Part shown: in pieces, positions 4,096-29,010 of the stretch
How positions within the stretch are numbered: position 1 is the stretch's first letter
How the letters are laid out: each line of letters starts with the position of its first letter
IMG/VR virus record: IMGVR_UViG_3300006738_000023
Location: 1-40,563 of that record
DNA: 40,563 bases
Origin: a virus
Direction: 5' to 3' (one strand)
Made by a program: the position numbers and the translations under genes
Notes under the pieces: model-generated
What the model saw: the letters and a program-made list of their open reading frames with translations, nothing else
Database searches by the model: none
Told to the model about the DNA's origin: nothing

Positions 4096-4172
4096 GACAG
4101 CCCCCTAGCGTTATTTATTGGCAGGTATCCAATATCAAATTAACGCAGTTAATGGGGCTTGGGTAGAGGCCA

Positions 4173-16140: not shown

Positions 16141-16155
16141 AACACGTAACGTGTT
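16141..16155. promoter_or_regulatory. ACAC-N5-GTGT operator-like palindrome downstream of int
   Basis: AACAC-GTAAC-GTGTT has the same half-sites and spacing as the cI/cro operators. Confidence 0.4.
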
Positions 16156-16240
16156 AAATGCCCCTCAAGAGTGTTACACACCAGCATGCCAACCACCATC
16201 ACGGCACGTGCTGGATACTCTTAACAGATAGGTTTGCTCA

Positions 16241-17509
16241 TTACCCCGCCGCCCCTTGCCACCACTGGGGCCGGTCGCTGTTGTGATAAAACGACGATCT
16301 TGGTTCTGTCTCGGTCAGAAACACGCTAAAACCACGCTCACACAGCCATTTATGCCAGCGCTCCAACGCGTCGAGAATCTGCCGCTCTGCGTAGGTGTGA
16401 ATGTAAGTACGATCTAGTTTTGTTAGGGCGTGATTTAACAGCAGCTCACCGGCTAGATACTCGACCCCGAGGTCAGCCCATGTAGTCCTGGCGAGCTTAC
16501 GCAGATCGTGAGAATGCCACCGCGCACCGCTGGCACTCACCACCAGATCAAACACAGCTGAACGGGATAACGGCTTACCCTTCGATGCACCAGGAAACAG
16601 ATACACGCCCCGGTAACCGTTCGCCTGCTGATATGCTCGGTAACGGGTCAACAGCGTGACAGCCATGGGCGTTAACGGCAGGCGGTGTTGTCGTTTGGAT
16701 TTTGTATTGTCGGTGGGGATAGTCCACGTGCGCGCGTCGAGATCGAACTGCCCCCACTTGGCTAGCCGCGTCTCACTGATACGGGTGCCGAACAGCAGCA
16801 TCAATAACAGCAGAAAACACCCCGGCGGCTCGCACGAACGCAGGGCGCGTATCACCTCGGGCACATCGGCAGCGGTCAGCGCACCCGCTTTAGCTGGGGT
16901 TTTCGCGTCGATGAAGTCGCCCACATTCACCCCGGCGAACGGGTCAGCATCCAACAGGTTCAGCTTACGGGCTTGCTTGAACGCGGCCTTGATCACCCCA
17001 AAAATCAGGCGCACATAGGCCACGGAATAATGCTCCTGTAGCGGCCACACCAACCCGCTATCGATAGACGCGGGCGTAATGCCCGCCAGCGGCTGGCCAC
17101 CGAACAGGGGCAATAGGTGCCGATTCACGGCGGTTTTGATCGATGATTTTCGAGTAGCGGATAACCGGCCATGGGATGCCGAACGGTCACGATACCAACA
17201 CAGCAGGTCGGCCACGGTTTCCCACGCATCGACGCCCACCGGCCCGGCAGGGTCAAGCGCCAGCTTGGCTTGAATCTCCGGCAAGCGCGCCAGCAAAGCG
17301 CGGGTGGTCAGCTCCGGGTAATTGCCCACCCGGTGCCAGTGGTCACGCCCACCGGCATAGCGCACCACGTACCAGCTCGCCCGCTCACGGCACGCATGAA
17401 AACGCACCCGCACCGGGTAGCGCGGGTCGCGTAACTGAGTAATCGAAGGGTCTTGTATGTGACGCTTGATAGCCGCGTCAGAGAGAGTAACCGCGAGGGT
17501 TTTGGGCAT
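16241..17509 (-). CDS. int: Tyrosine integrase, P4-like
   Basis: 422 aa. Catalytic signature: GTRISE (Arg), HDLRK (His-x-x-Arg), LLNH, and RTYIHTY (Tyr). N-terminal arm-binding-like domain. Confidence 0.9.
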   Translation of the reverse strand: MPKTLAVTLSDAAIKRHIQDPSITQLRDPRYPVRVRFHACRERASWYVVRYAGGRDHWHRVGNYPELTTRALLARLPEIQAKLALDPAGPVGVDAWETVADLLCWYRDRSASHGRLSATRKSSIKTAVNRHLLPLFGGQPLAGITPASIDSGLVWPLQEHYSVAYVRLIFGVIKAAFKQARKLNLLDADPFAGVNVGDFIDAKTPAKAGALTAADVPEVIRALRSCEPPGCFLLLLMLLFGTRISETRLAKWGQFDLDARTWTIPTDNTKSKRQHRLPLTPMAVTLLTRYRAYQQANGYRGVYLFPGASKGKPLSRSAVFDLVVSASGARWHSHDLRKLARTTWADLGVEYLAGELLLNHALTKLDRTYIHTYAERQILDALERWHKWLCERGFSVFLTETEPRSSFYHNSDRPQWWQGAAG

Positions 17510-17571
17510 GGGCTCAAACTCCGAGACAGCAACGCCCCCGCCTGGGGGTCAATGCGCCGGGCTGAGCCGTT

Positions 17572-17609
17572 GCGTTATTGCGTTATATCACGCTAGCGTT
17601 ATAGCGTTC
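17572..17609. repeat. Five GCGTTA/TCACGC boxes in 8-bp register, upstream of int
   Basis: GCGTTA at 17572, GCGTTA at 17580, TCACGC at 17588, GCGTTA at 17596, GCGTTC at 17604. Box starts are exactly 8 bp apart. Confidence 0.8.
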
Positions 17610-17821
17610 TAATTAGTGATAGGGGTTACTCGATGCGCCGGAACGTAGCGAATGCGTGACTTATGCTCCATATCCCTCCAATTCCGGTCACCAAACACCT
17701 TTAGCTTTAAGCGACCATCCGGCATTTCCTTCAAGACGTGACAACGCATGTGATAACGCTTCACCCATCGGCAGCAGTGATAACACTCTAGTAAGTGAGT
17801 AGCGTTTTCAGATGTCAGCAT
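17609..17821 (-). CDS. Cys/His-rich small protein, unknown function
   Basis: 70-aa ORF (CYHCCRWVKRYHMRCH) in a visibly lower-GC patch. Confidence 0.5.
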   Translation of the reverse strand: MLTSENATHLLECYHCCRWVKRYHMRCHVLKEMPDGRLKLKVFGDRNWRDMEHKSRIRYVPAHRVTPITN

Positions 17822-17858
17822 TCTAGGCTCCCGACAGGAAAATCAAGGAATAAGGATT

Positions 17859-17872
17859 GCGTTATTTAACGC
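17859..17872. repeat. Two-box unit GCGTTA-TT-TAACGC upstream of ORF 17609..17821
   Basis: Same boxes and the same 8-bp spacing as the other arrays. Confidence 0.6.
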
Positions 17873-17885
17873 CAGTGTTACACCC

Positions 17886-18083
17886 TCAAGGCGGGCCGAT
17901 AGCCTGCCCAATCAACCAGACAAGCAACGCGATACACGCCGCTACAACCCCGGAAAGAAAACCAGCAGCTAAAAAGCTTTCAGCACTCCAAAGCCAATCC
18001 GGCGGCGGATCTTTACTGACAAAGGCATAAAACAGCGCATACCACAGCGCCACAAGCACAGCGCGGGCAAAGTGCTTTTTCAT
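17886..18083 (-). CDS. Small membrane protein (2 TM)
   Basis: 65-aa ORF with two hydrophobic helices. ATGA overlap with the upstream gene. Confidence 0.55.
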   Translation of the reverse strand: MKKHFARAVLVALWYALFYAFVSKDPPPDWLWSAESFLAAGFLSGVVAACIALLVWLIGQAIGPP

Positions 18084-18466
18084 AAGCCGTCACGCTCCCG
18101 CGTGCGATCTTTCAGCGCCTCTAACGCCCGCTCGATACCCTGCAGCGCCTCGGCGTTGTACAAATCGGCATGCGGCCCATCTTGGAACCGCTCCAGGCGG
18201 TCGGCACACGTCGCCAGCACCGCTTCCAGCGTCACGCCGTTGGGGCCAACCTCCTGCGGGTTACCGTCCTGAAAGCTGATACACCCCAGCACCTGCCCCC
18301 GGCCTTCCAGCAGCTCAGCCTCAGCGCCCACGCCAATGATGTAATGGTTTTGTGCGCCACCTGGGGAGTATGGCCCGTGAGCGATCACCGCTTGGCCCAT
18401 GTCACCGCGACCGTTAGGGGTGACGGCATGCCCGGTCACTAACCGGGGCTGATTGAGATTAGGCAT
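18080..18466 (-). CDS. Hypothetical protein
   Basis: ATG at 18466 overlaps the upstream stop (ATGCCTAA). The C-terminal segment (ISFQDGNPQEVGPNGVTLEAVLATCADRLERFQDG...ALEALKDRTRER) recalls a widespread small phage protein family whose function I cannot assign. Confidence 0.5.
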   Translation of the reverse strand: MPNLNQPRLVTGHAVTPNGRGDMGQAVIAHGPYSPGGAQNHYIIGVGAEAELLEGRGQVLGCISFQDGNPQEVGPNGVTLEAVLATCADRLERFQDGPHADLYNAEALQGIERALEALKDRTRERDGL

Positions 18467-19154
18467 TAGCAGACGCCTCCCGGTTATGCTCAATGGCTTT
18501 GCTAGGGTCTACGGTTCTCCAGTCTGGCCAATCGCGCTGCTCATTCTTTGCCAACTTACCGGCTAACGCGCCAGCAATAGCGGCTGAGCTATGGCCAGCC
18601 CGCCAAGCGCCATCGAGCGCCAGCAGGACAATATCGATCCACTCGGAAAGATCCTCCGGGGCAGCGGCCACCTCGGCCAGCTCTTTTCTAATGTGGTCGC
18701 TAATCCCCTCAGCGCGGGCACCAGGGCCAAAGGCTTTAACCGAAAAGGCCCGTTGCCGATCAAGATGCGCCACCAAGTCGTAAGCACATGAGCTGGCAGG
18801 AACCGCCCACAGCTGAAACGGCCCATCTTCCGTATCATGAATAGAAAGCAGCACAGCATCAGGGCTAGGCGGCGCTAGCTCCCAACTTGCAAAAGTGTTT
18901 TCAAGATTCACGTACTCTTCAAAAGCGGGCGTTCCTTCATCTACCGTATTTTCAAACGAAACATGCTCCAACTTGCAGCGGTTCGCGTTCTCGAAAAGAT
19001 CCACAAAATATGTCGGGATAATCTCGCCATCACCAAGAGAGACACAAAACTTTTGCCACTCAGGGTGCGTAAAACTACCATCCTTCTCTCTGACCACCTC
19101 AACGGCTTCAATCATGGCCGTAACTCCTACTGTCGGTTTTGAATAGCGCGCCAA
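18459..19154 (-). CDS. Two-domain protein with a C-terminal DUF550/MazG-like nucleotide pyrophosphohydrolase domain
   Basis: HIRKELAEVAAAPEDLSEWIDIVLLALDGAWRAGHS...KLAKNEQRDWPDW matches the DUF550 pattern (E..P.DL.EW.D...L.LDG..R.G...K...N..R.WP). Confidence 0.65.
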   Translation of the reverse strand: MARYSKPTVGVTAMIEAVEVVREKDGSFTHPEWQKFCVSLGDGEIIPTYFVDLFENANRCKLEHVSFENTVDEGTPAFEEYVNLENTFASWELAPPSPDAVLLSIHDTEDGPFQLWAVPASSCAYDLVAHLDRQRAFSVKAFGPGARAEGISDHIRKELAEVAAAPEDLSEWIDIVLLALDGAWRAGHSSAAIAGALAGKLAKNEQRDWPDWRTVDPSKAIEHNREASANA

Positions 19155-19172
19155 CGCTCATTGCCATTTACT

Positions 19173-19202
19173 GCGTTATAGCGTGCTAGCGTTATTTCAC
19201 GC
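19173..19202 (-). repeat. 30-bp four-box cassette (minus orientation), 19 nt upstream of the DUF550 gene
   Basis: Reverse complement is GCGTGAAATAACGCTAGCACGCTATAACGC. Confidence 0.85.
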
Positions 19203-19349
19203 TCACCACTCGATGCGCCCCAAAGCGGGCGATAACGCTTGTTTTTGCTGCCTTCTTGGTCGTGCTGGCAGGCACCACCATCGAAAACGTCTTAGGCTCT
19301 TTGCCTTCCAAAACGGTCACGCGGAATACACGGTTAACCGCTTTGGAAG

Positions 19350-19775
19350 TCACAGCCCTAGCGCCTGTTCAACGTGCGCCCGCGCCCGCGCCAACCGGCG
19401 GCGGTAGGTGGCCACCCCCACTTCCAGCGCGTGGGCCTTCTGCAGTTGGCCAATATTGCGATGGTCATAGCCTCGCAGCTGTCGGCGGCTCACCACCCGT
19501 GCCACGCCCGCGTTGTACTCCAGGCGCAACACGTCGGCGGTCAACAGATCCTCACGCGCCAGCGATACCACCGCATACTCGATGCGCTCTTCGAGCGGGT
19601 ACGACTCCGCGCCCATGGGGGCCGACCCGCCCACGGTCGAACGGCTCACCACCCCGCCGTTATCGATCAACACGCCCAGCAGCGACGTGCCCAACGCAGC
19701 ACCGCCACCCTGCAGGCACCAGCGCGCCCAGCGCTCCAGCATCACGTCCAGATCATTCGCCGCCCGACGCCCCAC
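19350..19775 (-). CDS. Late-gene antiterminator Q-like (QuuD/phage 82 type)
   Basis: MLERWARW matches the VLERWGAW signature near the N-terminus of this Q family. GTG at 19775 has GGAGG 7 nt upstream; an alternative ATG is at 19742. The track start at 19871 overlaps the preceding gene. Confidence 0.65.
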   Translation of the reverse strand: MGRRAANDLDVMLERWARWCLQGGGAALGTSLLGVLIDNGGVVSRSTVGGSAPMGAESYPLEERIEYAVVSLAREDLLTADVLRLEYNAGVARVVSRRQLRGYDHRNIGQLQKAHALEVGVATYRRRLARARAHVEQALGL

Positions 19776-19777
19776 CG

Positions 19778-20110
19778 CTACGCCTCCACAATCGTCAGCG
19801 GGTACAGCTCTTCGACCTGCCGCTTTTTCAGCTTGTATATATCGGTACGCATGCCCTTCACGTCGATCCATTCGACCGTGCCGTCAGCGCGGAACACGAC
19901 AAAATCAATGACGTATTTCACCCCGCCCGGCAGGGCGATAGGCACTTGCATCAGAAACATCGTTACGCGGTCGGCCTGCTGTTCGCTCAGCAGGTAGAGG
20001 TAATAATTCGCCTCTTTTTTCGAGTCGAACGTATGCCCGTGAATGGTCACCTTCTTGTTGTTGTACTTAGCCGCATTGGGCGCACGGCGGCGCATGTTAT
20101 GCCGTTGCAT
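19778..20110 (-). CDS. DUF1064 protein (restriction-endonuclease-fold, resolvase-like)
   Basis: KYNNKKVTIHGHTFDSKKEANYYLYL...KYVIDFVVFRADGTVEWIDVKG...YKLKKRQ matches the DUF1064 signature. Confidence 0.75.
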   Translation of the reverse strand: MQRHNMRRRAPNAAKYNNKKVTIHGHTFDSKKEANYYLYLLSEQQADRVTMFLMQVPIALPGGVKYVIDFVVFRADGTVEWIDVKGMRTDIYKLKKRQVEELYPLTIVEA

Positions 20111-20336
20111 GACGCGCCCCCAACCAATCGTTAAACCGCTCCACCAGCGCCAGGTATTCGCGCCCGGCCTGCTCGTTACCATCTAGCTCGCGGCGGCTTA
20201 GCACCCCACACGCCAGCCGCACCTCTGCCGCCGCCGTGGCGGCATCCGGCACCCTGCGCCCGGTGGTAGCCGTGAGATAGTCACGAAATAGGGGGTTATT
20301 GCACAGCATCGCCGCGCCTTTTGCGTAACGGCTCAC
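20097..20336 (-). CDS. Hypothetical protein
   Basis: 79-aa ORF, translationally coupled on both sides. Confidence 0.5.
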   Translation of the reverse strand: MSRYAKGAAMLCNNPLFRDYLTATTGRRVPDAATAAAEVRLACGVLSRRELDGNEQAGREYLALVERFNDWLGARHATA

Positions 20337-20644
20337 GCTTCCCCCTTAGCTACTGGCAACTTAAAGCGCTGAGGCGGGCCAAGATAATCATAAGGCGGCA
20401 TCGCCTGCAGGCCGTGAGTGTCAGCAAGTCGGATTAAAATCGCCCCGATCTCACAGCCCGACAAATCAACGTCAACAAGCTGCAAGTAGGCATGAATCGT
20501 GCTGATCGTGTGACATTCACCGTCGGACAGAACCTCCACCACCTCGGCAATCCCTACGGCGTCAGGTTCAGCAGCATCTAGGCCGAACAGCTCCGCAAGG
20601 CTGCCATCGGCTTTCTCTTCCTCCATGAGCTTATGAATACTCAC
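20333..20644 (-). CDS. Hypothetical acidic protein
   Basis: 103-aa ORF with ATGA-type overlaps at both ends. Confidence 0.5.
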   Translation of the reverse strand: MSIHKLMEEEKADGSLAELFGLDAAEPDAVGIAEVVEVLSDGECHTISTIHAYLQLVDVDLSGCEIGAILIRLADTHGLQAMPPYDYLGPPQRFKLPVAKGEA

Positions 20645-21051
20645 GCCACACCCCGCTTAGCCCACAGCTCAGACAGTGCCGCCTCACCATCGATAAAATG
20701 GCGGTGGCCATCCTTGGTGGCGGTGGCCAGCAGATCCCCGCGCACAATGGGCACCTCGTCGCTGGGCACGCCTTCCACATGCACCACGTGCCCGCCCAGC
20801 TTACGGATGCGCTCGGCCTCTACCCGATGCACCACGTGGGCCACCACCAAGCACTCCGCCCCCTTGGCCGGGGTCGCGCTAATCATCCCCTCAAGGCGCT
20901 GCATGCGGCGGGCCACTTCGGCATGAGCGCCAAAGCGCTGCGCGGGCGCATCGGTGTAGACCGACACGGTACAAATCTGCGCATCACGCATTGCCCGCGC
21001 CACGCGCTCGCGTGCCGTCGCGTTAGCGCCAGCAATTCCAATCAATAGCAT
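20641..21051 (-). CDS. Hypothetical protein with a degenerate P-loop-like N-terminus
   Basis: ATG at 21051 (MLLIGIAGANATARERVA). The track start at 21189 overlaps the upstream gene by 148 nt. Confidence 0.5.
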   Translation of the reverse strand: MLLIGIAGANATARERVARAMRDAQICTVSVYTDAPAQRFGAHAEVARRMQRLEGMISATPAKGAECLVVAHVVHRVEAERIRKLGGHVVHVEGVPSDEVPIVRGDLLATATKDGHRHFIDGEAALSELWAKRGVA

Positions 21052-21608
21052 TCGACGGCCTCTCTGAGTCGTTGGGCGCGGTGCGCCTGCAAAATGTCGT
21101 GCAACACGGTCACCGTGGCCGCATCGCCCTGGCCTAGCGCCGCCTCGACCGCCGCGCTCATATCCCCCACAGTCACGCGGGAAACGCACCAGCGGGCGAA
21201 ATAGCGCAGATTATCGGGGTGGTTCGCCACCTGGGGCGGGTAGGCCAGATCATTGATAAACCACGCCGCCCACTGCTCGGCGCGGTGGTAAAGGGTGTCG
21301 TCGTTGGGTGCCTGGGCAGGGTCTACGCGCTCAAGCGTGGGGCAATGCACGGTGAGTGATTCGCCATCGTCCTCGACGATCAACAACCCCTGCGCTTGGT
21401 AAAACGCCATGAACTCACGGGCGCTATCGTCGTCGGCCTGCATCAAATCGCCCCACGCCACGTAGGTTTTAGCCACCGGGCCGGGGGTCGCTGCCAGCGC
21501 CTCCAGCACCAACAAATAGCGGGCATAGCCAATCAACCCATACTCAGCCGCCACGGTGGCCACGCCCTCGCTCTGCGCCAACCCGGCAGGATGAACGAAC
21601 GCGCTCAC
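21042..21608 (-). CDS. Hypothetical early protein (possible replisome-organizer-like N-terminus)
   Basis: 188-aa ORF, second gene of the cro-side operon. AEYGLIGYARYLLVLEAL weakly recalls DUF4373/DnaD-like N-terminal domains. Confidence 0.35.
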   Translation of the reverse strand: MSAFVHPAGLAQSEGVATVAAEYGLIGYARYLLVLEALAATPGPVAKTYVAWGDLMQADDDSAREFMAFYQAQGLLIVEDDGESLTVHCPTLERVDPAQAPNDDTLYHRAEQWAAWFINDLAYPPQVANHPDNLRYFARWCVSRVTVGDMSAAVEAALGQGDAATVTVLHDILQAHRAQRLREAVECY

Positions 21609-21829
21609 GCCGCCACCCCATCGCGCTCAGCCAGCACCGCCGCCCAAGGGCCATAGATGCCGTTATAATCCACCGCACCAGCGGTCAACCGCACGATGCG
21701 CCCAGCGGTGCGTAAACTCGGCGCACGATCAAAGCGATACCAGCTCATCACCGTACGGGGCTTCTCGCTGAGTAGCGCGCCCGCACAGTCCGGCCCGCCC
21801 ACTTGATCAATCCAATCATTTAGCAACAC
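21605..21829 (-). CDS. Cro/YdaS-like HTH protein
   Basis: HTH pattern GGPDCAGALLSEKPRTVMSWYRFDRAPSLRTAGRIVRLTAGAV. The track ORF start (21967) lies upstream of the operators, so the start was moved to the GTG at 21829. The exact start is uncertain. Confidence 0.55.
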   Translation of the reverse strand: MLLNDWIDQVGGPDCAGALLSEKPRTVMSWYRFDRAPSLRTAGRIVRLTAGAVDYNGIYGPWAAVLAERDGVAA

Positions 21830-21842
21830 TTTAGCGCACCAT

Positions 21843-21925
21843 TTAACACGAAGTGTGTTAAGCCTAGCGCGAAGATTGCCCACGTACAAAGGTTTTTTTA
21901 TTCCACACTTACACGCTTTGTGTAT
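21843..21925. promoter_or_regulatory. Divergent cI/cro control region with two ACAC-N5-GTGT operators
   Basis: TTAACAC-GAAGT-GTGTTAA at 21843..21861 (perfect 7-bp arms). TTACAC-GCTTT-GTGTAT at 21909..21925. Confidence 0.7.
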
Positions 21926-22020
21926 TACTATTGCCTGAGAGGTAATATTTACCCGAAAATTAATCACCGAAGGCGCACACGGACGGCATCAACGGCGGGA
22001 TAGATAACGGGAAGCGGAAA

Positions 22021-22674
22021 ATGTCACAGCAAAGCGACAGGCAGGACAAAAAAGAGCTAATCGCACAGCGGCTAGTGGAAGTGCGCACCCACTTAGGGTG
22101 GTCGATCCGCGACGCAGTCGAAGCGCTCGGCTACGTGCGTTCTCGTTATACCAACTGGGAACTCGGCATTCGCATGCCCGGCTATCAGGAATTGGAAGAC
22201 ATCGGCAACGTAACTGGCTGCAATCCCGGCTATTTTGTCGGCTGGACAAACCGCATGATCGACAGCAGCTACGTCGTACTAGACCGCACCACGGTTAAAA
22301 CCCGCGTTGGCTCGATCACCGTGCAAAACGCCACCGATGTAGCCGCCTACCGCGACGACTACCTCGCCGAAAAAGGGCTAAAGCCCAGCAGCATTATCAC
22401 CGTCAAAGCCGAAGATGACGCCATGGAAGGCGTAATTAGCAAGGGCGATTTAGCCCTAATCGACATGAGCCGCAAACCCGATGCCGTGCGCGACCTGTTC
22501 GCTATCCTCGTGGGTGACCGCATTTGGCTACGCTGGATACGCCCGGAAATCAACGGCAGCTACACCATGAGCGCCGAAAACAGCCACCAATACCCCGATG
22601 AAACCCTCACCACCGGGCAGCTACAACAGCTCAACATCATCGGCCGCGTCGCCATCATCGAGCACGAACGCTAA
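22021..22674 (+). CDS. CI-like repressor (XRE HTH plus S24 LexA-like fold) with a degenerate catalytic dyad
   Basis: N-terminal HTH (LIAQRLVEVRTHLGWSIRDAVEALGYVRSRYTNWELG). The C-terminal domain aligns with lambda CI (GDRIWLRWIRPEINGSYTMSAENSHQYP versus [26 protein letters not shown]). However it has DDAMEG where GxSM is expected, and no Lys at the FKKL position. Confidence 0.8.
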   Translation: MSQQSDRQDKKELIAQRLVEVRTHLGWSIRDAVEALGYVRSRYTNWELGIRMPGYQELEDIGNVTGCNPGYFVGWTNRMIDSSYVVLDRTTVKTRVGSITVQNATDVAAYRDDYLAEKGLKPSSIITVKAEDDAMEGVISKGDLALIDMSRKPDAVRDLFAILVGDRIWLRWIRPEINGSYTMSAENSHQYPDETLTTGQLQQLNIIGRVAIIEHER

Positions 22675-22710
22675 GCGCCAGCCCAGCGGAAAAACACCCC
22701 ACTCCTAGAA

Positions 22711-22736
22711 CGGCACCCACAAAGTGCCGTTTTTTT
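22711..22736 (+). terminator. Rho-independent terminator after the repressor gene
   Basis: CGGCAC-CCACAAA-GTGCCG followed by TTTTTTT. Confidence 0.8.
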
Positions 22737-22747
22737 GGCTTGCCGAA

Positions 22748-22784
22748 TAACACAATTAGTGTCACTCTTACACAGACTGTGTAA
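22748..22784. promoter_or_regulatory. Two ACAC-N5-GTGT operators upstream of the plus-strand early operon
   Basis: TAACAC-AATTA-GTGTCA at 22748..22764. TTACAC-AGACT-GTGTAA at 22768..22784 (perfect 6-bp arms). Confidence 0.65.
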
Positions 22785-22801
22785 TCAAGAGGGTTTCACT
22801 A

Positions 22802-23059
22802 ATGACCACGCACCCGATAGCCACCGTTACCGCCTCGCCCCCCATCGCCTGCACCCCGCAAGCGCTGCACCAAGCCCTGCGCGAAAGCGTCGCTATCGCG
22901 TGCGGGCTCGAAAAAATGGCCCAATGCGCCCTGGATGAAGGCGAGTACCCAGCGGAAGAACTCGACAACCTGTTTGCTCTCATTAACCGCCACCGACGCG
23001 ATTTAGAAGAGATCAAAGCCGCGCTGGCCGAACTCGCCACGGGTGTCCACCATGACTAA
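22802..23059 (+). CDS. Hypothetical protein, first gene of the early operon
   Basis: 85-aa ORF directly after the operator pair. Confidence 0.55.
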   Translation: MTTHPIATVTASPPIACTPQALHQALRESVAIACGLEKMAQCALDEGEYPAEELDNLFALINRHRRDLEEIKAALAELATGVHHD

Positions 23060-23462
23060 CCCCACCCAGCGCCAGCCATGGCGCGACGACGACGCCCTAG
23101 CCCAACCCGGCCAAGCCCTCAGCGAGCAAGAGCTAGCCCACCTGCTCGCCCTCGCCAACGGCAACGCCCCCAGCGCCATCACCGCCATCAACGGCACCAG
23201 CCGCGCCCAACAGCAGCAGCTCGAAAGCAGCCTGCGGGCCAAGCTCGGCGCGTTCAGCAAAGCGCACATCATCACCCGCGCGTTCGTGCTGGGCGTGCTG
23301 CTACCTCGCTGCCTCACCGTGCTACTGATCGTCGCCACACTCGGTAATGGCGCCCAACAAGATGCCATCGCCCAGCGCCTACCCCGCCGCCCCACGCAAA
23401 CCGCCAGCGCCCGCCTAATGCGTACTCAGCGGGGCAGTAGCGCAGGGGGTCGCCGCACATGA
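23052..23462 (+). CDS. LuxR/GerE-type HTH protein
   Basis: LSEQELAHLLALANGNAPSAITAINGTSRAQQQQLESSLRAKLGAFSKAHIITRAFVLGVL fits the GerE HTH pattern (L..rE...L.l.a.G....I......S...v......i..KLg.......). ATG at 23052 overlaps the upstream stop. Confidence 0.5.
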   Translation: MTNPTQRQPWRDDDALAQPGQALSEQELAHLLALANGNAPSAITAINGTSRAQQQQLESSLRAKLGAFSKAHIITRAFVLGVLLPRCLTVLLIVATLGNGAQQDAIAQRLPRRPTQTASARLMRTQRGSSAGGRRT

Positions 23463-23761
23463 AACCGCACATCCTCACAGGCCCGCGCCGTAGGCACTGC
23501 CGCTGCCGCGTCTGCCGTGGGCGGCAGGTCAAGGCCAAGCACCCGAACGACTACACCCGCCGCATCCGCTGCAAACACTGCGGCCAATTCAACACGCTGG
23601 TAGTCGACAAATGGGCCGATAACCGGGGCTGGCGAAAGTACACGTGCTATTGCGACGGCTACCACTTCCCGCACCGCATCCGCTCGGAATTTTGTTTTGA
23701 AAACCCAAACTACGGCGAACAAGAAGAACGCCGGTTAATGGCCTACGGGGTGATGGCATGA
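23459..23761 (+). CDS. Cys-rich zinc-ribbon protein
   Basis: CRCRVC...CKHC...CYCDGYHFPHR cysteine/histidine clusters. ATGA coupling. Confidence 0.55.
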   Translation: MKPHILTGPRRRHCRCRVCRGRQVKAKHPNDYTRRIRCKHCGQFNTLVVDKWADNRGWRKYTCYCDGYHFPHRIRSEFCFENPNYGEQEERRLMAYGVMA

Positions 23762-24273
23762 AGATTATGGCGACCGACCTACCGCTAAAACACTGGCAGC
23801 GCATCGCAGAGCAAAACGGCATTCAGCGCAGAACGTTTCTCTATCGCCTGAAAACCATGGACGCGAAAAAAGCCGCCACCAAGCCACTCAAAAAAGGCGG
23901 CATAAAGCCAATCGCCACCAGCAAGCGCCAAAAAAGCCTAGCCGCCGGGCTAGATGAATGCGCCCTAAGCCGCTACCGCCGCGAACACCCCGAAAGCCAG
24001 CTAAGCGACGAAGCCGCCCTCGCCTTTCTGCAAGCGCGCAAAGCCAAACTGCAAAACACCCTACGCGAACGCGCCCTTGCAGCAGGGCTAAGCCCCCAGC
24101 TGGTGTATCACCGCATTAGCCGCAACTGGCCGCTAGATAAAGCACTCAACACCCCGCCCATGCCCACCAGCCACGCGGCCCGCATCGGCGGTAAAGCCCG
24201 CGCCCAGCAAAAGCGCGAACGCCGCCAGCAGCGGCTCCAGCAAGCAGCGTTAAAAAACGCTAGCACGCAATAA
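23758..24273 (+). CDS. Basic protein with repeated HTH-like segments
   Basis: 171-aa ORF. Repeats of A..GI/L....Y.R motifs (IAEQNGIQRRTFLYRL; ALAAGLSPQLVYHRI). Confidence 0.5.
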   Translation: MKIMATDLPLKHWQRIAEQNGIQRRTFLYRLKTMDAKKAATKPLKKGGIKPIATSKRQKSLAAGLDECALSRYRREHPESQLSDEAALAFLQARKAKLQNTLRERALAAGLSPQLVYHRISRNWPLDKALNTPPMPTSHAARIGGKARAQQKRERRQQRLQQAALKNASTQ

Positions 24274-24276
24274 CGC
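24247..24276 (+). repeat. 30-bp four-box cassette upstream of rdgC
   Basis: GCGTTAAAAAACGCTAGCACGCAATAACGC. Overlaps the last codons of the preceding gene. Confidence 0.85.
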
Positions 24277-24304
24277 AAACAAAACCGACACAGGAAGCCC
24301 CGCC

Positions 24305-25471
24305 ATGTGGTTTACCAATATTACCGTTTACCAGCTCCACAACGCCCCAACGATCGACAGCATAACGCTGCATGAAACGCTGCAAGCAGAAGCCGCCAAG
24401 CCGTTAGGCAATACCGATGCCAAGCGCCACGGCTGGACACCCCCAGCAGGCCGCGCCAGCAACGCCTATCTGCACGAAAGCCAAGGCCACCGCCTGCTCA
24501 GCATGCTCAAACAGCAGCGCATGCTGCCGCCCAAGGTCGTCAAAGCAGCGGTCGAGGAAAAGGTCGCGGAAGTCGAAGTCAACGAAGGCCGCAAGGTCAC
24601 GCGCAAAGAAAAAACCGACTTCAAAGAACAGATCACCGAGGAGCTGCTACCCCGCGCCTTTATCGATAGCATCAAAATCGACGCATGGTGGGACGTAGAA
24701 AAAAACCGCATCATCATCAACAGCGGCAGCCGCGCCCGCTGCGAAGAGCTGTTAGACCTGCTACGCGAAACCCTCGGCAGCCTCAAAGCCACCCCGCTCA
24801 GCACCCAAACGCTACCCATCCGCGCCATGACCACCTGGGTAAGCGACGCCCAAAGCCGCCCCGCCAACCTGCAGCTAGGCGACAAAGCCACGCTCAAAGC
24901 CAAAGGCGACGACGGCAAAATAGCCGCCACGCAAGTGGATCTCGACAGCGACGAAATACAGCAGCTACTCGAAAGCGGGCGGCAAGCCACCAACCTCGCC
25001 ATCACCATTGATGAGCGCGTCAGCGGCGTACTCACCGACAGCCTGCAGCTCAAAAGCCTGCGCTTTAGCGACCAGCTGATCGAGCAAGCCGACATGACCG
25101 AAACAAAGAGCGACGATGGCGACGACCCCATAGCGCGCATAGAAGCCGATTTTTTCCTTATGGCCAACGCCCTAAGCGACACGCTGGATAGCCTCGTTCA
25201 CATGCTGGGCGATGAAACCGTGCGTGAAGTAGCCGAAGAAAAAGGCACCCGCCCCGACGACAGCCACCCCGGCGAACAGATCGGGGGCTTTGAGCCCAAC
25301 GACGCCCTCACACCCGCCGCCATCCAGCTCAGCAAAACCGAGAACGGCAACATCACCGTGACCCGCCTGCAGCGCCACTTCAAAATCGGCTACAACCGCG
25401 CCCAGCGCCTGCAAGAGTACCTAATCAGCAAAGGCCACATTCCCAACCCCTACGGGCAGCCAGCCCCATGA
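24305..25471 (+). CDS. rdgC: RdgC-like recombination-associated protein with a C-terminal FtsK-gamma-like winged helix
   Basis: MWFTNITVYQL...GWTPP...LLPRAF...LLDLLRETLGSL parallels E. coli RdgC (MLWFKNLMVYRL...GWVPP...LLPRAF...LALLRKSLGSL). The last 40 aa (TRLQRHFKIGYNRAQRLQEYLISKGHI) match the FtsK gamma motif (lQRrlrIGYnRAarl...lE..Gi). Confidence 0.8.
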   Translation: MWFTNITVYQLHNAPTIDSITLHETLQAEAAKPLGNTDAKRHGWTPPAGRASNAYLHESQGHRLLSMLKQQRMLPPKVVKAAVEEKVAEVEVNEGRKVTRKEKTDFKEQITEELLPRAFIDSIKIDAWWDVEKNRIIINSGSRARCEELLDLLRETLGSLKATPLSTQTLPIRAMTTWVSDAQSRPANLQLGDKATLKAKGDDGKIAATQVDLDSDEIQQLLESGRQATNLAITIDERVSGVLTDSLQLKSLRFSDQLIEQADMTETKSDDGDDPIARIEADFFLMANALSDTLDSLVHMLGDETVREVAEEKGTRPDDSHPGEQIGGFEPNDALTPAAIQLSKTENGNITVTRLQRHFKIGYNRAQRLQEYLISKGHIPNPYGQPAP

Positions 25472-25617
25472 ACGCCACCAACTACCGCTGCTACAACCCC
25501 AAATGCAACCAGGGCAACACCCCCGGCTGGATGCTGGGCGCTAACCCCATTTGCCCAAAGTGCGGCCACTGGCTCACCCGCCAGCCCAACGAAAACGCCA
25601 GCGTTAAAAAACGCTAG
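25468..25617 (+). CDS. 49-aa zinc-ribbon protein (below the ORF-track size cut-off)
   Basis: ATGA overlap with the rdgC stop. MNATNYRCYNPKCNQG...ICPKCGHW has two Cys pairs. Confidence 0.5.
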   Translation: MNATNYRCYNPKCNQGNTPGWMLGANPICPKCGHWLTRQPNENASVKKR

Positions 25618-25630
25618 CACGCTATAACGC
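25601..25630 (+). repeat. 30-bp four-box cassette abutting the SD of the next ORF
   Basis: GCGTTAAAAAACGCTAGCACGCTATAACGC is followed immediately by AGGAG and the ATG at 25646. Confidence 0.85.
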
Positions 25631-25645
25631 AGGAGACACAGCCCC

Positions 25646-25777
25646 ATGCCCACCCCGCTAATACTACTCATCGGCCTAGCCGTTGCCGCCGTCGCCTACG
25701 CCGGGTGGCAGTGCAAATGCGAAATCGAACAGCTCGACCAGAACGGCGACCCCATCGAGAAGGACGAACAGCCATGA
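25646..25777 (+). CDS. 43-aa single-TM protein (not in the ORF track)
   Basis: AGGAG 9 nt upstream. MPTPLILLIGLAVAAVAYAGW then an acidic tail. ATGA coupling to the next ORF. Confidence 0.55.
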   Translation: MPTPLILLIGLAVAAVAYAGWQCKCEIEQLDQNGDPIEKDEQP

Positions 25778-26019
25778 TCATCGACAACAGCGCCAAAAAC
25801 GCCCAGCGCATTCCCTGCAAAGAGTTTCGCGGTGAATGCCGCATGTGCCAAAGCGGGTTTATTGCCCGCAGCGGGGTATGCTCGGGCGTCAACCCTGACA
25901 CCGCCAGCCCGCCCGACTGCCTGCGAGACGAACTGCCAGAACACCTCTGCCATCCCAACGGCCTACCCCTGGGATGGGGCCAATTCACGCAGGACAGCGC
26001 CAGCGAGGCCGCCCAATGA
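25774..26019 (+). CDS. 81-aa Cys-rich protein
   Basis: Start moved to the ATG at 25774 (ATGA overlap). MIIDNSAKNAQRIPCKEFRGECRMCQSGF... Confidence 0.5.
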   Translation: MIIDNSAKNAQRIPCKEFRGECRMCQSGFIARSGVCSGVNPDTASPPDCLRDELPEHLCHPNGLPLGWGQFTQDSASEAAQ

Positions 26020-26252
26020 TATTCATCACCCTAAGCGGCATCGCCATCGGCATCGCCGTAGTGGGCCTAGTGTTCATGCACACGCGGCCCATATCGCCTC
26101 ACATCATGCGCGCCTGCCACATCATGCACGCCATCACCCTGACGATAAGCACCGCCACCATTACCGCCGCCCTCGCCCACCTGGGCGAGCCGCAAGCGTG
26201 CTGGTTGGCGGTGGATCTCCTGGGGGTAGTCATTGACGCTTGCACGCCCTAG
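26016..26252 (+). CDS. 78-aa membrane protein
   Basis: Start moved to the ATG at 26016 (ATGA overlap). MIFITLSGIAIGIAVVGLVFM plus further hydrophobic helices. Confidence 0.5.
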   Translation: MIFITLSGIAIGIAVVGLVFMHTRPISPHIMRACHIMHAITLTISTATITAALAHLGEPQACWLAVDLLGVVIDACTP

Positions 26253-26505
26253 CGCTACTCTGCCCGTGTCGCTGCAAAATCAGCGACCGGGTTTAGCAGC
26301 TCGCAACTCTTTCAGGCGCACAGCGCCCCGTTTCATCGTGTAGGCGTTTTTTTACGCCCGCAGGATGCACTATGGCGGGCCGTGCGTGGGGCACCTTCGG
26401 GTGCGCCGGTGTTCCTGAAGAGCCGGTCTGCTAACCCGCGTACGGTTCGCCACCATTGATTAGCAGCATAGTGGCGAACTCCAAACATCTTCAGGAGTTA
26501 CCGCA

Positions 26506-27288
26506 ATGTCTATACCTACCATTTCCGTTTCTGGTGTTTCCCTTCCCTATATCGAATACCAGGGCCAACCAGCTGTAACCTTCGCCATGATCGACGCAGC
26601 ACACCAGCGACCGCAAGGCACAGCAAAACGTAACTTTAGATCGAACAAACGCCACCTTATTGAAGGTGAAGACTTCTATGTTGCTGATTCTAAAAGCTTG
26701 GACGAAATTCGTCCCAGCTATCCGGGCCTATTCCCAGCGATGGCCACAAGCATGTTTTTCTTCACCGAAACCGGCTACCTCATGCTGGTCAAATCGTTTA
26801 CCGACGACCTCGCTTGGCAAGTACAGCGCCAGCTAGTGAAAAGCTATTTCCGCGTAAAAGGGGCGATGCAGCCCACCGCCGCCGAACCCATCCCCGCGCC
26901 CATCGACCACCGCCAGCGGGAACAGCTTACCAACGCCGCCAACGCCGTGTTTCGCAATTTCGGCGGCATGCGCCAAAGCGCCACCGGCTGGTTTTATAAC
27001 GGCGTCCGCACGGACTACTGCCTAAAGCGCATCGAAGATTTAAGCCAAGACGACTTCCCGGCAGTCATGGAACGCCTGCAAGCCCTACGCCCCAAGGTGC
27101 GCCAATACGAAGATTTTAGGTATGACTTCCAACAGTCGTTTTTAAAAGAGGTCGTAGGCGAAGGCCAGCCCTACACGGCATGGATCAGCAAGCTAGCCGG
27201 TGGCCAACACCACATCGGCCAGCGCCCCAACTGGAAAGCCATCGCCAAGCAGGTGCTAATCCACAACGGCCTGCTCACCAAACAGTAA
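26506..27288 (+). CDS. ORF6N/KilA-N-type DNA-binding domain protein (antirepressor-like)
   Basis: The N-terminal 120 aa (QPAVTFAMIDAAHQRPQGTAKRNFRSNKRHLIEGEDFYV...FTETGYLMLVKSFTDDLAWQVQRQLVKSYF) fits the ORF6N/Ant N-terminal pattern. AGGAG 8 nt upstream of the ATG. Confidence 0.6.
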   Translation: MSIPTISVSGVSLPYIEYQGQPAVTFAMIDAAHQRPQGTAKRNFRSNKRHLIEGEDFYVADSKSLDEIRPSYPGLFPAMATSMFFFTETGYLMLVKSFTDDLAWQVQRQLVKSYFRVKGAMQPTAAEPIPAPIDHRQREQLTNAANAVFRNFGGMRQSATGWFYNGVRTDYCLKRIEDLSQDDFPAVMERLQALRPKVRQYEDFRYDFQQSFLKEVVGEGQPYTAWISKLAGGQHHIGQRPNWKAIAKQVLIHNGLLTKQ

Positions 27289-27310
27289 GCCCATCCGCGC
27301 CAGCAAGCCC

Positions 27311-27336
27311 AAGCCCGCCACCGTGCGGGCTTTTTG
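27311..27336 (+). terminator. Rho-independent terminator
   Basis: AAGCCCGC-CACCGT-GCGGGCTT followed by TTTTG. Confidence 0.75.
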
Positions 27337-27350
27337 CTGCCTGAACGCCT

Positions 27351-27468
27351 GCGTTATAAAACGCTAGCGTTTTAGCGTTTTATCTTGCACCCCTAGCAGC
27401 GCTTTTCTATACTAGCGTTATTGCGTGCTAGCGTTATTTAACGCTGTAACGCCAGCGCGCAATAACGC
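27351..27468. repeat. 118-bp array of GCGTTA/TAACGC hexamer boxes in unbroken 8-bp register (candidate centromere/operator of the par operon)
   Basis: Box starts at 27351, 27359, 27367, 27375, 27415, 27423, 27431, 27439, 27447 and 27463 all fall on one 8-bp lattice of 15 slots. Orientation is mixed. Positions 27415..27444 are an inverted copy of the 30-bp cassette. The array ends 25 nt before the parA ATG. Confidence 0.8.
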
Positions 27469-27492
27469 AACGTTAGCCAAGGGGAAACACCA

Positions 27493-28137
27493 ATGGGATA
27501 CAAGATTGCCTTCGTGAGCCAAAAGGGCGGCGTCAGCAAAAGCACCCTAAGCCGGGCGCTGGGCACCACCTACGCCGCCGCTGGCTGGAATGTGAAAATA
27601 GCCGACCTCGACATCAACCAGTCTACCTCGTTTACGTGGCTGCAGCGCCGCCTTAAAAGTGGCGCATCGCCGGAAGTCGCGGTTGAAACCTTCGGCACGG
27701 TGGCCAGCGCTCTAAAGGTAGCTGACACCTACGACCTAATGATTTTCGACGGCGCGCCCCACGCCACCAAAGCCACCGCCGAAGTGGCCCGGCTTGCGGA
27801 TCTCGTCGTTCTACCCACCGCGCTAAGCGTTGACGACCTTGAACCCACCGTAAGGCTGGCCAACACACTCACCGGCCAAGAAGGCGTGCCCATCGACCGT
27901 ATCGCTATTGCGCTGAGCAAAGTGGGCAAGAGTAAAACGCAGCTGCAGGATGCCCGCGCCTACCTCGCCCATACGCCCTATTTTGTACTCGATGGCCAAG
28001 TACCCGAGCGCGACGCGTTTGTATTAGCCCAAGACAAGGGGCTGTCGATTGTTGAAACCCCCTTCAAAGGCCCGAAGGCCCAAGCGGATGAACTGATACA
28101 AAACATCATCAACCGCTTTGAATCACTTGTTAATTAA
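27493..28137 (+). CDS. parA: ParA-family partition ATPase (small, type Ib)
   Basis: Deviant Walker A SQKGGVSKST, A' IADLD, Walker B LMIFDGAP. 214 aa with no N-terminal HTH. Confidence 0.9.
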   Translation: MGYKIAFVSQKGGVSKSTLSRALGTTYAAAGWNVKIADLDINQSTSFTWLQRRLKSGASPEVAVETFGTVASALKVADTYDLMIFDGAPHATKATAEVARLADLVVLPTALSVDDLEPTVRLANTLTGQEGVPIDRIAIALSKVGKSKTQLQDARAYLAHTPYFVLDGQVPERDAFVLAQDKGLSIVETPFKGPKAQADELIQNIINRFESLVN

Positions 28138-28167
28138 GCGTTATATAACGCTAGCACGCTAAAACGC
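28138..28167 (+). repeat. 30-bp four-box cassette between parA and the RHH gene
   Basis: GCGTTATATAACGCTAGCACGCTAAAACGC starts at the base after the parA stop and is followed by AGGAG. Confidence 0.85.
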
Positions 28168-28180
28168 AGGAGCTAACACC

Positions 28181-28423
28181 ATGGCAAAGCCAAGCATGAA
28201 ACCCAGCAGCAAAGGCGCACCGCCCACAGCAGCCACCCCCGGCCCGGTGGTAGGCAACAACACCAGCAAGCCGGAAAGCGGCGAAAAGGTGCCGCTTAAT
28301 TTCCGCGTTGATCCTGAAATGCGCCGGGAGTTTAAAGCGTTTGCCGTAGATCATGACATGCAAATGGTGGACGTACTCAAGGAAGCCTGGGCAGCGTACA
28401 AGCGGGAAAAAGGGAAGGGCTAG
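28181..28423 (+). CDS. Ribbon-helix-helix ParG-like centromere-binding protein
   Basis: 80 aa. Disordered basic/Pro-rich N-terminal tail, then an RHH pattern (KVPLNFRVDPEMRREFKAFAVDHDMQMVDVLKEAWAAY). Immediately downstream of a type Ib parA. Confidence 0.7.
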   Translation: MAKPSMKPSSKGAPPTAATPGPVVGNNTSKPESGEKVPLNFRVDPEMRREFKAFAVDHDMQMVDVLKEAWAAYKREKGKG

Positions 28424-28425
28424 CC

Positions 28426-28776
28426 GTGAATAATGAGATCCAGCAGTTTGACCGCCTGATACCTAGCTATGAGCTGGCACTGTGCGCCATTGCTGAGCTT
28501 ATGTCGCACCACTATAAGAGCGTGCTAGAAAGCACCTCGATAGGCCCATGCGAGGGCGGCTATGCCGTCGCGGTCGCTTGCGACACCGGCCCCGCCCTAG
28601 TGGGATTCACCCTGCAGGAAACGCCGTACAACAGCTATCGAGACGCGTTAAGCGCCTTCGGCGTCATGCTGGACGACATCACCGCTCGCCAGGAAGGGCG
28701 CGCAGAATGGAAGAGTGAGGCGTGGTGGGAACAGCACCACGACGACCTGAAAGCCCGCTATGGCTTCGAGCTATAG
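28426..28776 (+). CDS. Hypothetical protein
   Basis: 116-aa ORF with a GTG start 2 nt after the preceding stop. Confidence 0.5.
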   Translation: MNNEIQQFDRLIPSYELALCAIAELMSHHYKSVLESTSIGPCEGGYAVAVACDTGPALVGFTLQETPYNSYRDALSAFGVMLDDITARQEGRAEWKSEAWWEQHHDDLKARYGFEL

Positions 28777-28854
28777 CGCACACTAAAACGCCCACCCGGT
28801 GGCCAGACCGGGCGGGCGTTACGCAACGACATAATACCAATGGGGATTACTATC

Positions 28855-29010
28855 ATGTCAGCAACAGAATATACCACGATTGCGCGCACACCGTTAAACC
28901 AGCTGCATACGCTGCCGCTGCACCTGCTGTGCGCCTACCTATACCAATGCCCAGCCATCAGCCGCCGTGCGCTAGAACGCATCGTGCGTATCCATGAGGA
29001 GGTCGTATGA
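28855..29010 (+). CDS. 51-aa hypothetical protein (not in the ORF track)
   Basis: ATG at 28855 with GGGGA upstream. MSATEYTTIARTPLNQLHTLPLHLLCAYLYQCPAISRRALERIVRIHEEVV. ATGA coupling to the next gene. The 28722..28997 track ORF is in another frame. Confidence 0.45.
   Translation: MSATEYTTIARTPLNQLHTLPLHLLCAYLYQCPAISRRALERIVRIHEEVV

Follow-up and report, generated by a model that had tools for sequence, protein, structure and literature searches.

Introduction

Type Ib partition systems with ribbon-helix-helix (RHH) proteins have been described, as have the omega regulon and the dispersed sites of the centromere-binding proteins SopB in the phage-plasmid N15 and KorB in RK2, whose OB sites are scattered over the plasmid. 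Here we characterize a 40,563 nucleotide long stretch of viral DNA (IMG/VR record IMGVR_UViG_3300006738_000023, positions 1 to 40,563; hereafter the window). In this element a 30-bp cassette of regularly spaced boxes recurs between genes, and a parA gene is followed by the gene of an 80-aa protein, which we consider the candidate binder of the boxes.

In the TP228 system the boxes recognised by ParG have the sequence ACTC and 4-bp AT-rich spacers. Each box is occupied by one dimer, whichever way it points, and about half of the centromere activity remains with four boxes (PMC3130281). For pSM19035, at least four contiguous repeats are required for full activation of the ParA ATPase (PMC9499535). 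The stoperators of phage L5 are repressor sites outside of promoters that are oriented with transcription (PMC6550527), while the SopB sites IR1-IR4 of N15 are scattered (PMC7205306). For the plasmid pZM3H1 the authors predicted that 7-bp imperfect inverted repeats near a promoter constitute parS and that orf35 encodes ParB (PMC3606827).

The ends of the window are identical over 63 bp (bases 1-63 equal bases 40501-40563), which makes the window a contig of 40,500 bp that closes to a circle and is probably the entire genome of a phage-plasmid. It carries temperate phage genes (integrase, a CI-like repressor, terminase and others) in addition to parA and the gene of the 80-aa protein. A 94% identical ParA is encoded on a 45.9-kb circular Halomonas qaidamensis plasmid that is full of phage genes (L022, NZ_CP080628), which identifies the window as a Halomonas phage-plasmid. 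A megablast search of the INPHARED phages with positions 17000-29000 of the window found no close phage relative.

Anatomy of the cassettes and arrays

The cassette pattern GCGTTAWWWAACGCTAGCACGCWAWAACGC was matched five times in the window with 0-1 mismatch each, at 24247, 25601 and 28138 on the plus strand and at 19173 and 27415 on the minus strand, in agreement with the positions given by a first-pass annotation of this DNA. In 100 dinucleotide-preserving shuffles it did not occur at all. Each cassette consists of the four tetramer boxes CGTT, AACG, CACG and AACG at exact 8-bp steps, one of them inverted and three direct. Larger arrays keep the same 8-bp register regardless of the orientation of the single boxes. 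Runs of at least four boxes in this register were found 7 times in the window compared to 0 times in 200 shuffles. From 32 boxes in 7 arrays we obtained the box consensus T-A-t-M-A-C-G-C-w-a with AT-rich 4-bp spacers. The core ACGC was invariant in all 32 boxes, although the scan had demanded MACG alone. The arrays are the following:

17572..17609, minus strand: five-box array, orientations >> < >> on the minus strand; 62 nt upstream of the int start codon (ATG at 17509)
17859..17872, no strand assigned: two-box palindrome GCGTTATTTAACGC; 37 nt upstream of a 70-aa open reading frame (ORF) at 17609-17821 on the minus strand
19173..19202, minus strand: four-box cassette, <>>> on the minus strand, upstream of the DUF550 gene; 1 mismatch; kept in relatives
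24247..24276, plus strand: four-box cassette containing the stop of the ORF 23758-24273; ends 28 nt before rdgC
25594..25630, plus strand: cassette 25601-25630 with a fifth box at 25594; contains the TAG stop of a Zn-ribbon ORF
27344..27379, no strand assigned: distal par array, five boxes ><><<; ends just before the -35 hexamer
27415..27470, no strand assigned: proximal par operator (putative), inverted cassette 27415-27444 overlapping a degenerate forward cassette 27431-27468
28138..28167, plus strand: four-box cassette directly after the parA stop

The two related arrays that had been noted next to the cassettes, five boxes at 17572-17609 and the palindrome at 17859-17872, are thus both present, the latter being the weakest member of the set. 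Two 3-box runs were set aside. One, at 26329-26348, lies within the c4/ant leader (Rfam) between the a1b1 targets and the C4 RNA. The other, at 4396-4415, is located inside a coding sequence, has no AT-rich spacers and is probably due to chance.

All copies in the window that lie close to a Shine-Dalgarno (SD) sequence share the orientation of the downstream gene. At 25601 and 28138 the last box is immediately followed by AGGAG, the SD sequence of a 43-aa membrane ORF (start 25646) and of the RHH gene, respectively, just as described before. The short distances to the start codon that had been reported hold for rdgC (28 nt), the 43-aa ORF (15 nt) and the RHH gene (13 nt). They do not hold for the DUF550 gene, which encodes a dATP/dGTP pyrophosphohydrolase (Pfam PF04447 match). 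Here the likely start is the ATG at 19115 with its AGGAG SD sequence, such that the cassette is 57 nt away and not 18 nt as for the TTG at 19154.

Read in the forward direction, the cassette contains stop codons in all three frames, followed by the SD sequence, while the reverse strand leaves one frame open. Every forward frame is closed because 8 is not a multiple of 3 and three successive boxes contain TAA. With its stops and the SD sequence the cassette can work as a frame-independent gene junction. Two cassettes overlap the ends of the upstream genes, and they do so in different frames: the ORF 23758-24273 ends in ...ALKNASTQ (stop) using frame 1 and the Zn-ribbon ORF in ...NASVKKR (stop) using frame 3. 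Together with box cores that are kept in relatives while the flanks diverge (see below), these overlaps support the earlier proposal that the DNA motif rather than the protein is under selection.

The par locus

The par locus comprises, apart from its arrays:

27385..27413, plus strand: putative par promoter TTGCAC-17 nt-TATACT, read by hand
27493..28137, plus strand: parA, encoding a 214-aa Walker-type ATPase of type Ib size; Pfam CbiA/ParA/MipZ
28181..28423, plus strand: parB-like RHH gene directly after parA, 80 aa; Pfam RHH_10; beta-strand PLNFRV

A strict consensus promoter scan did not call the putative promoter at par. It is kept in L022, and the same place holds TTGCCA-17-TATCCT or TTGCGC-17-TATCCT in Aeromonas, Edwardsiella and Pseudomonas relatives. 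The arrays bracket the promoter: the distal array (27344-27379) ends at the -35 hexamer, while the proximal one (27415-27470) begins 2 nt past the -10 hexamer and leaves 22 nt to the parA ATG. The cassette copy at 27415 is inverted and lies 48 nt before parA, as had been pointed out. It is, however, only half of a palindromic pair, the degenerate forward half of which (27431-27468) faces parA. The combination of flanking arrays with a filled parA-parB gap was seen in Halomonas, Aeromonas, Edwardsiella, Vibrio and Pseudomonas relatives, box arrays occupying the gap in most relatives.

ParA is small, as is typical for type Ib, and has no N-terminal helix-turn-helix (HTH) domain. Its nearest solved structures are TP228 ParA (5u1g) and ParF (4dzz), both aligned over the full length. 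For the 80-aa protein a disordered N-terminal tail with conserved KGxPP and VVGNNT motifs, followed by an RHH domain, is predicted. The Pfam match to RHH_10 had an E-value of 0.003, which is under the gathering score. In a profile search of the PDB sequences the top three matches were all RHH proteins (E 0.1-0.5). An AlphaFold2 (AF2) model provided no secondary structure for residues 1-44 and helices at 45-57 and 62-77, and its top Foldseek matches were almost exclusively RHH proteins, including ParG (1p94), with a template modelling score (TMt) of up to 0.78. Each of these lines is weak singly, but they agree with each other and suggest an RHH protein with a flexible tail. TP228 ParG itself was absent from the PDB-sequence profile search at E-values of up to 10 and was matched by structure alone (1p94, 24% identity, E 0.9). 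The 80-aa protein would therefore resemble ParG in the way it works rather than being a demonstrable member of the ParG family. Judged by these sequence and model features, ParA, the 80-aa RHH protein and the arrays at the promoter qualify as a type Ib partition module.

The position of the arrays at par also bears on the idea that the cassettes are promoters or activator sites, at which transcription starts just before each downstream gene. One could read the fixed position at 13-28 nt before the start codons, the common direction with the gene and the TATAAC-like hexamers in the AT-rich spacers in this way. At parA, however, the same cassette is found 3' of the promoter, where an operator would be expected. 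The sigma-70-like sites from a consensus scan overlap none of the dispersed cassettes, and inspection by hand showed that TATAAC has no T at -7 and no -35 hexamer at 16-18 nt. In addition, no RNA polymerase or sigma factor was detected in the element. We therefore consider a promoter function scarcely probable.

Covariation of the boxes with the RHH protein

The plasmids pZM3H1 and pTHAF12_c have only parA and the RHH gene in common with the window. In both of them the par promoter is nevertheless surrounded by TAACGC boxes with an 8-bp period, and such boxes also lie between parA and parB. On ordinary plasmids strict arrays were found at par only. In the distant phage-plasmids that we compared, the dispersed arrays always carry the par box of their own genome, which changes with the lineage: TAACGA in Aeromonas and Edwardsiella, (A/C)ACGAA in Vibrio phage VPHZ6, TAAAGA in Aliivibrio phage H905 and TAGCGA in a Pseudomonas plasmid.

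A word-based protein search with the RHH protein provided 17 close relatives, all of them at least 62% identical, while more distant RHH relatives were reached through ParA searches. Over about 28 loci, the beta-strand residue that follows N-[FL] covaries with base 6 of the box. Arg occurs with C at base 6, both in Halomonas phages and plasmids and beyond them (window, L022-L024, L034, L060 and L038, whose box is TAAAGC). Lys goes along with A: for 16 of the 18 Lys loci, each with at least 11 boxes, base 6 is A in 75-100% of the boxes. Of the remaining two, one has three boxes, all with A, and L046 departs from the rule. Loci with Ser have mixed bases at this position. Such a pattern is expected if the beta-sheet reads base 6 directly.

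The element's own 80-aa RHH protein (ParB) is thus very likely the protein that binds the boxes, as far as can be judged from sequence comparison. It had been suggested as binder before, and the co-travel of the boxes with parA, the covariation and the use of the same box throughout a genome all speak for it. A different binder, such as the integrase (arm-type sites), an excisionase, CI/Cro, a replication initiator (iterons) or a host factor, appears highly improbable to us. An array directly upstream of int in several lineages would suit the first of these proteins, and an initiator could be invoked since the element's own replication module was not recognised. However, the boxes accompany parA and the RHH gene into plasmids that are otherwise unrelated to the phage, of which pZM3H1 has its own RepA and unrelated ori repeats (PMC3606827). 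The CI-type operators look different (ACAC...GTGT repeats at 21825-21935 and 22745-22790), and it is the RHH strand with which the boxes covary.

Dispersal and orientation in related elements

Related replicons were scanned for 8-bp-periodic pentamers in linear time without a preset motif. In every replicon examined the par box was the top motif. Outside of par we found about 8 arrays in VPHZ6, 3 in the Aeromonas plasmid, 3 in the Edwardsiella plasmid and 4 in H905, where almost none are expected by chance. In VPHZ6 arrays precede the capsid, tail-sheath and exonuclease genes and follow the tape-measure gene, with further ones elsewhere. The tape-measure gene is also followed by an array in the Aeromonas and Edwardsiella plasmids, and in these as well as in H905 an array precedes the integrase gene; H905 has others elsewhere. 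An array just 5' of a gene for an integrase of about 420 aa is thus shared by L022, the Aeromonas and Edwardsiella plasmids and H905.

A search of IMG/VR with a ParA alignment provided 80 loci with 10-kb flanks. A periodic par box was recognised in 45 of them, and 34 of these 45 also contain one or more arrays in the flanks at a distance of over 400 bp from par. Dispersal is therefore a family trait and not peculiar to the genome of the window, in line with the previous suggestion of dispersed centromere- or operator-like sites in the manner of omega, KorB and N15. The exact form of the cassette is confined to a narrow group of Halomonas phage-plasmids; an exact-pattern scan of 185,579 representative genomes gave 0 matches. 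The three contigs L074 (IMGVR_UViG_2821091796_000001, 118 kb), L080 and L094, which are 110-118 kb long and encode a ParA of 36-42% identity, contain 8-bp-periodic arrays of ACGAA type at 2-7 places outside of par. The dispersal habit may hence reach beyond the 40-kb phage-plasmid family.

For the orientation census in the IMG/VR relatives naive ORF calls were used, for which most cases are ambiguous, as ORFs are possible on both strands. Among the 26 unambiguous cases, array and downstream ORF were co-oriented in 24. In the two anti-oriented cases the forward direction was mis-assigned or the array was located at a contig edge. A manual count on annotated genomes yielded co-orientation in 21 of 22 cases. 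The one clear exception to the orientation rule is found in H905 (L028), where a reversed six-box array at 522-566, followed by a hairpin, lies upstream of a gene at 613.

An RNA-level role had previously been raised as an alternative because of a possible hairpin next to the SD sequence. The transcribed cassette would then be an operator of translation, a site of processing or an element that stabilises the transcript, in keeping with its co-orientation with the downstream gene, its close contact to the SD sequence and a hairpin of 5-6 bp that can form at GCGUUAnnnnAACGC. This alternative found no support. The fold amounts to about -5 kcal/mol with a z-score of about 0 against shuffles, and there is no Rfam match at any cassette. 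The common variant GCGTG breaks a pair of the stem but is still a legal box (CGTG is CACG inverted). The arrays of Vibrio, Aeromonas and Aliivibrio are pure direct repeats without any palindrome. Boxes of both orientations also precede the par promoter, a place at which they do not become part of the gene's transcript. An RNA element is therefore very unlikely.

Conservation, concerted evolution and module junctions

The cassettes are found at the same junctions in contigs with 85-95% identity to the window; a look at their positions in relatives had been proposed by the first-pass annotation. Nearly all changes inside the boxes stay within the MACGC consensus (e.g. T to G giving CGTG or C to A giving AACG; the one exception is L014 with CGCGC as box 3), while the flanks diverge. 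In more distant relatives all copies have another spacer and another third box, CTTTAACGC in place of CTAGCACGC. Likewise, all copies of the window contain AACGCTAGCACGC, while nearly all copies in L018, L019 and L021 contain AACGCTTTAACGC. The RHH proteins of the latter are 63-74% identical to that of the window, with a beta-strand PMNLRV compared to PLNFRV. Since spacer and third box have changed in all copies of a lineage, the copies evolve in concert. Gene conversion could account for such concerted change, as could a recent spread of the copies or their co-evolution with the RHH protein.

The arrays also coincide with boundaries between gene modules. Of 34 homology breakpoints between the window and its relatives, 6 are located at arrays, which make up 5% of the sequence (P = 0.006). 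In L012 the upstream flank of the 24247 cassette is joined to the downstream flank of the 25601 cassette by one hybrid cassette (4040-4140), indicating that rdgC and the Zn-ribbon ORF were deleted exactly from cassette to cassette. A module of about 1.8 kb, absent from the window, is found between the ORF6N gene and parA in L006, L012, L013 and L022, with the distal par array as its insertion point. In L006 (2230-4180) it consists of three ORFs with box arrays on both sides. The gene downstream of the 25601-type cassette varies among relatives, and the homology breaks at 25631. For six relatives (L003, L008, L009, L010, L015 and L017) the homology to the window breaks at 18467 and resumes at 19124, such that they do not have the DUF550 sequence of the window between these points.

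These observations provide the most serious rival to a functional dispersal: the dispersed cassettes would be neutral copies of the par leader (operator, stops and ribosome-binding site, RBS) that were spread and homogenised, to which ParB binds without a selected role. Their real consequence would be a modular shuffling of genes. In this respect they would be comparable to the PeSL cassettes known from T4-type phages and to the sequences that form boundaries or linkers in lambdoid phages. Three-frame stops with a subsequent SD sequence, the exact deletion of rdgC, the array-flanked 1.8-kb module, the enrichment of breakpoints at arrays, the exchange of genes behind the 25601-type cassette and the concerted spacers within each genome are all features that such junctions would have. 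However, arrays recur at equivalent places, i.e. before the integrase gene and after the tape-measure gene, despite fully diverged boxes (AACGC, AACGA and TAAAG). This needs continued selection or a repeated re-creation in step with the specificity of ParB. Furthermore, box cores are kept while flanks diverge, and the array size clusters at 3-5 boxes, the number that RHH ParBs need for function. We therefore regard purely neutral spread as unlikely.

Neighbouring genes

The following features of the window and its relatives were observed in addition. A C4 antisense RNA (Rfam, 78.7 bits) and its a1/b1 target sites (58.2 bits) occupy 26255-26307 and 26368-26457 of the window, and directly downstream an ORF6N-domain gene extends over 26506-27288. 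This region corresponds to an immI anti-immunity module of the P1/P7/N15 type, in which a small RNA controls an antirepressor, here in a Halomonas element. Repeats of the type AACAC...GTGTT at 21825-21935 and 22745-22790 lie on either side of the CI-like gene and are presumed CI/Cro operators. A 35-nt inverted-repeat partner of these repeats is located at 16141-16175, 3' of int and remote from the immunity region.

The RdgC homologue (24305-25471) ends in a C-terminal FtsK-gamma domain (KOPS-binding winged helix, Pfam), and the same fusion is annotated in L021. In the tail-fibre region of L022 (NZ_CP080628, 24753-27319) there is a gene of the reverse transcriptase/maturase family with small neighbours, none of which are present in the window; it may belong to a diversity-generating retroelement or a defence module.

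Discussion

The anatomy of the cassettes, their conservation, dispersal and co-orientation with genes, their association with parAB and the covariation of protein and DNA, as observed here, lead us to propose that the cassette serves as an array of binding sites for the type Ib RHH protein of the element itself, with a main centromere at par and dispersed extra pads that damp transcription. We consider this reading as a whole likely. Binding itself, centromere activity and the effect on transcription are in this proposal predicted from the sequence. One ParB dimer would bind to each box, as for ParG in TP228, such that dimers coat each array. The two larger arrays around the par promoter would serve as main centromere and as autoregulatory operator of parAB. 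The dispersed arrays (at int, the DUF550 gene, rdgC, the 43-aa ORF and the RHH gene) would provide extra landing pads for ParB in short intercistronic gaps, where each four-box unit may act as a minimal extra centromere. In the plasmid-prophage state an occupied cassette would damp the read-through into the next cistron, similar to the oriented stoperators of L5, and the expression of int and early genes would be tied to the ParB level. Recombination between cassettes would add or remove gene modules. For the single roles of the dispersed copies our confidence is lower: a contribution to the centromere function is about evenly balanced between yes and no, and an influence on transcription is slightly less likely than that.

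Several points weigh against the proposed function. No promoter is detectable at the dispersed cassettes, such that a classical operator action is unlikely there, and a roadblock formed by small RHH dimers remains a proposal based on analogy. That the cassettes lie close to the RBS could be a by-product of the short gaps, and the same possibly holds for the orientation rule, since only the forward orientation gives stops in three frames. The closeness may in part be a matter of geometry, as 30 bp inserted into a short gap between genes necessarily reach the SD sequence. In the window the arrays are restricted to 17.5-28.2 kb, and the late genes are not silenced by them, while the late region of the Vibrio phage does have arrays. 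Uniform spacers that change in concert within a lineage would fit recent spread or gene conversion as well as selection on binding. The covariation of Arg and Lys with the box was counted without phylogenetic correction and includes about 3 independent Arg lineages. Finally, the RHH assignment is statistically weak, with a Pfam match below the gathering score, a predicted local distance difference test (pLDDT) value of 64 and Foldseek E-values of at least 0.2.

A more far-reaching version of the proposal would concern the whole, widespread gammaproteobacterial phage-plasmid family (Halomonas, Vibrio, Aliivibrio, Aeromonas and Edwardsiella). The RHH partition protein would be a genome-wide, orientation-dependent blocker of transcription, with arrays that act as stoperators and tie int, early genes and, in certain members, also the capsid and tail genes to the occupancy by ParB; the cassettes would at the same time be portable junctions for the exchange of modules. 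Because extra sites titrate ParB, the occupancy would depend on the plasmid copy number, such that the partition status would feed into the lysis-lysogeny programme. This wider version we regard as doubtful.

Phage-plasmids must reconcile plasmid maintenance with the control of phage genes, and the cross-talk between the two is largely obscure. If the sites were deliberately placed before phage genes, they would couple copy number or segregation to the expression of phage genes in a simple physical way. For type Ib RHH systems such a coupling is documented so far only for the small omega regulon. The system is amenable to tests, as it comprises an 80-aa protein, a 30-bp site and the cultured strain H. 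qaidamensis XH36, which carries the related plasmid NZ_CP080628. The covariation of Arg and Lys with C and A predicts that a single residue swaps the specificity. The box rule offers a way to predict the centromeres of many uncharacterised par systems, and oriented four-box units with built-in stops and an SD sequence are possible synthetic modules for intercistronic control.

In the searchable literature we found no account of arrays of an RHH partition protein that are scattered, co-oriented with transcription and placed before RBSs across a phage-plasmid family. Among the described systems, ParF-ParG-parH/OF of TP228 is similar in several aspects. In both cases a small Walker-type ParA is followed by a protein of about 76-80 aa with a tail and an RHH domain (predicted here), and 4-bp boxes (ACTC there, ACGC here) with an 8-bp period are arranged as direct and inverted repeats. 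The arrays over the par promoter provide autoregulation and the centromere (PMC3130281), as we propose for the window. In contrast, the 80-aa protein has no significant sequence similarity to ParG (in Foldseek 24% identity at E 0.9), and the box sequences differ. Moreover, the 20 boxes of TP228 are clustered at one locus, while in the window four-box units also lie dispersed between phage cistrons across 10 kb.

The omega regulon of pSM19035 and other inc18 plasmids shares with the window an RHH ParB and arrays of short asymmetric repeats at several loci that are both centromeric and regulatory, the roles that we predict here. Its heptads WATCACW have a 7-bp period, whereas we found an 8-bp period and an ACGC core. 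The omega sites lie over the copS, delta and omega promoters, whereas in the window arrays meet a promoter at parA only and the dispersed copies are intra-operonic next to the RBS. Furthermore, omega belongs to a plasmid of Gram-positive hosts and not to a phage.

The stoperators of L5 and other Cluster A phages are likewise many asymmetric sites throughout a temperate phage genome, outside of promoters and oriented with transcription. They are, however, single 13-bp sites of the immunity repressor, an HTH protein, whereas the multi-box arrays described here track the partition protein and the CI-like repressor has other repeats. A block of elongation would in our case be a proposal only. SopB of N15 and KorB of RK2 resemble the present system in that the sites of a centromere-binding protein are scattered instead of being clustered. 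Both are large type Ia ParBs of the HTH type that bind to single palindromes and spread, in contrast to a putative 80-aa RHH protein on oriented direct-repeat arrays. For N15, a link of Sop to phage (late) gene expression was reportedly made by Ravin, Rech and Lane in 2008 (cited in PMC11652158).

The PAR module of pZM3H1 (orf34-orf35) is a true homologue, with a 68% identical ParA, an about 55% identical 80-aa protein and the same TAACGC boxes. Different from the window, its boxes are found at the par locus and at one weak 3-box site, and its description includes neither the 8-bp register nor the RHH fold nor dispersal. The par-proximal repeats of pZM3H1 were proposed as parS already in 2013 (PMC3606827). 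Of the motif and layout that the first-pass annotation had taken to be undescribed, it is thus only the dispersal and its orientation rule that appear not to have been described.

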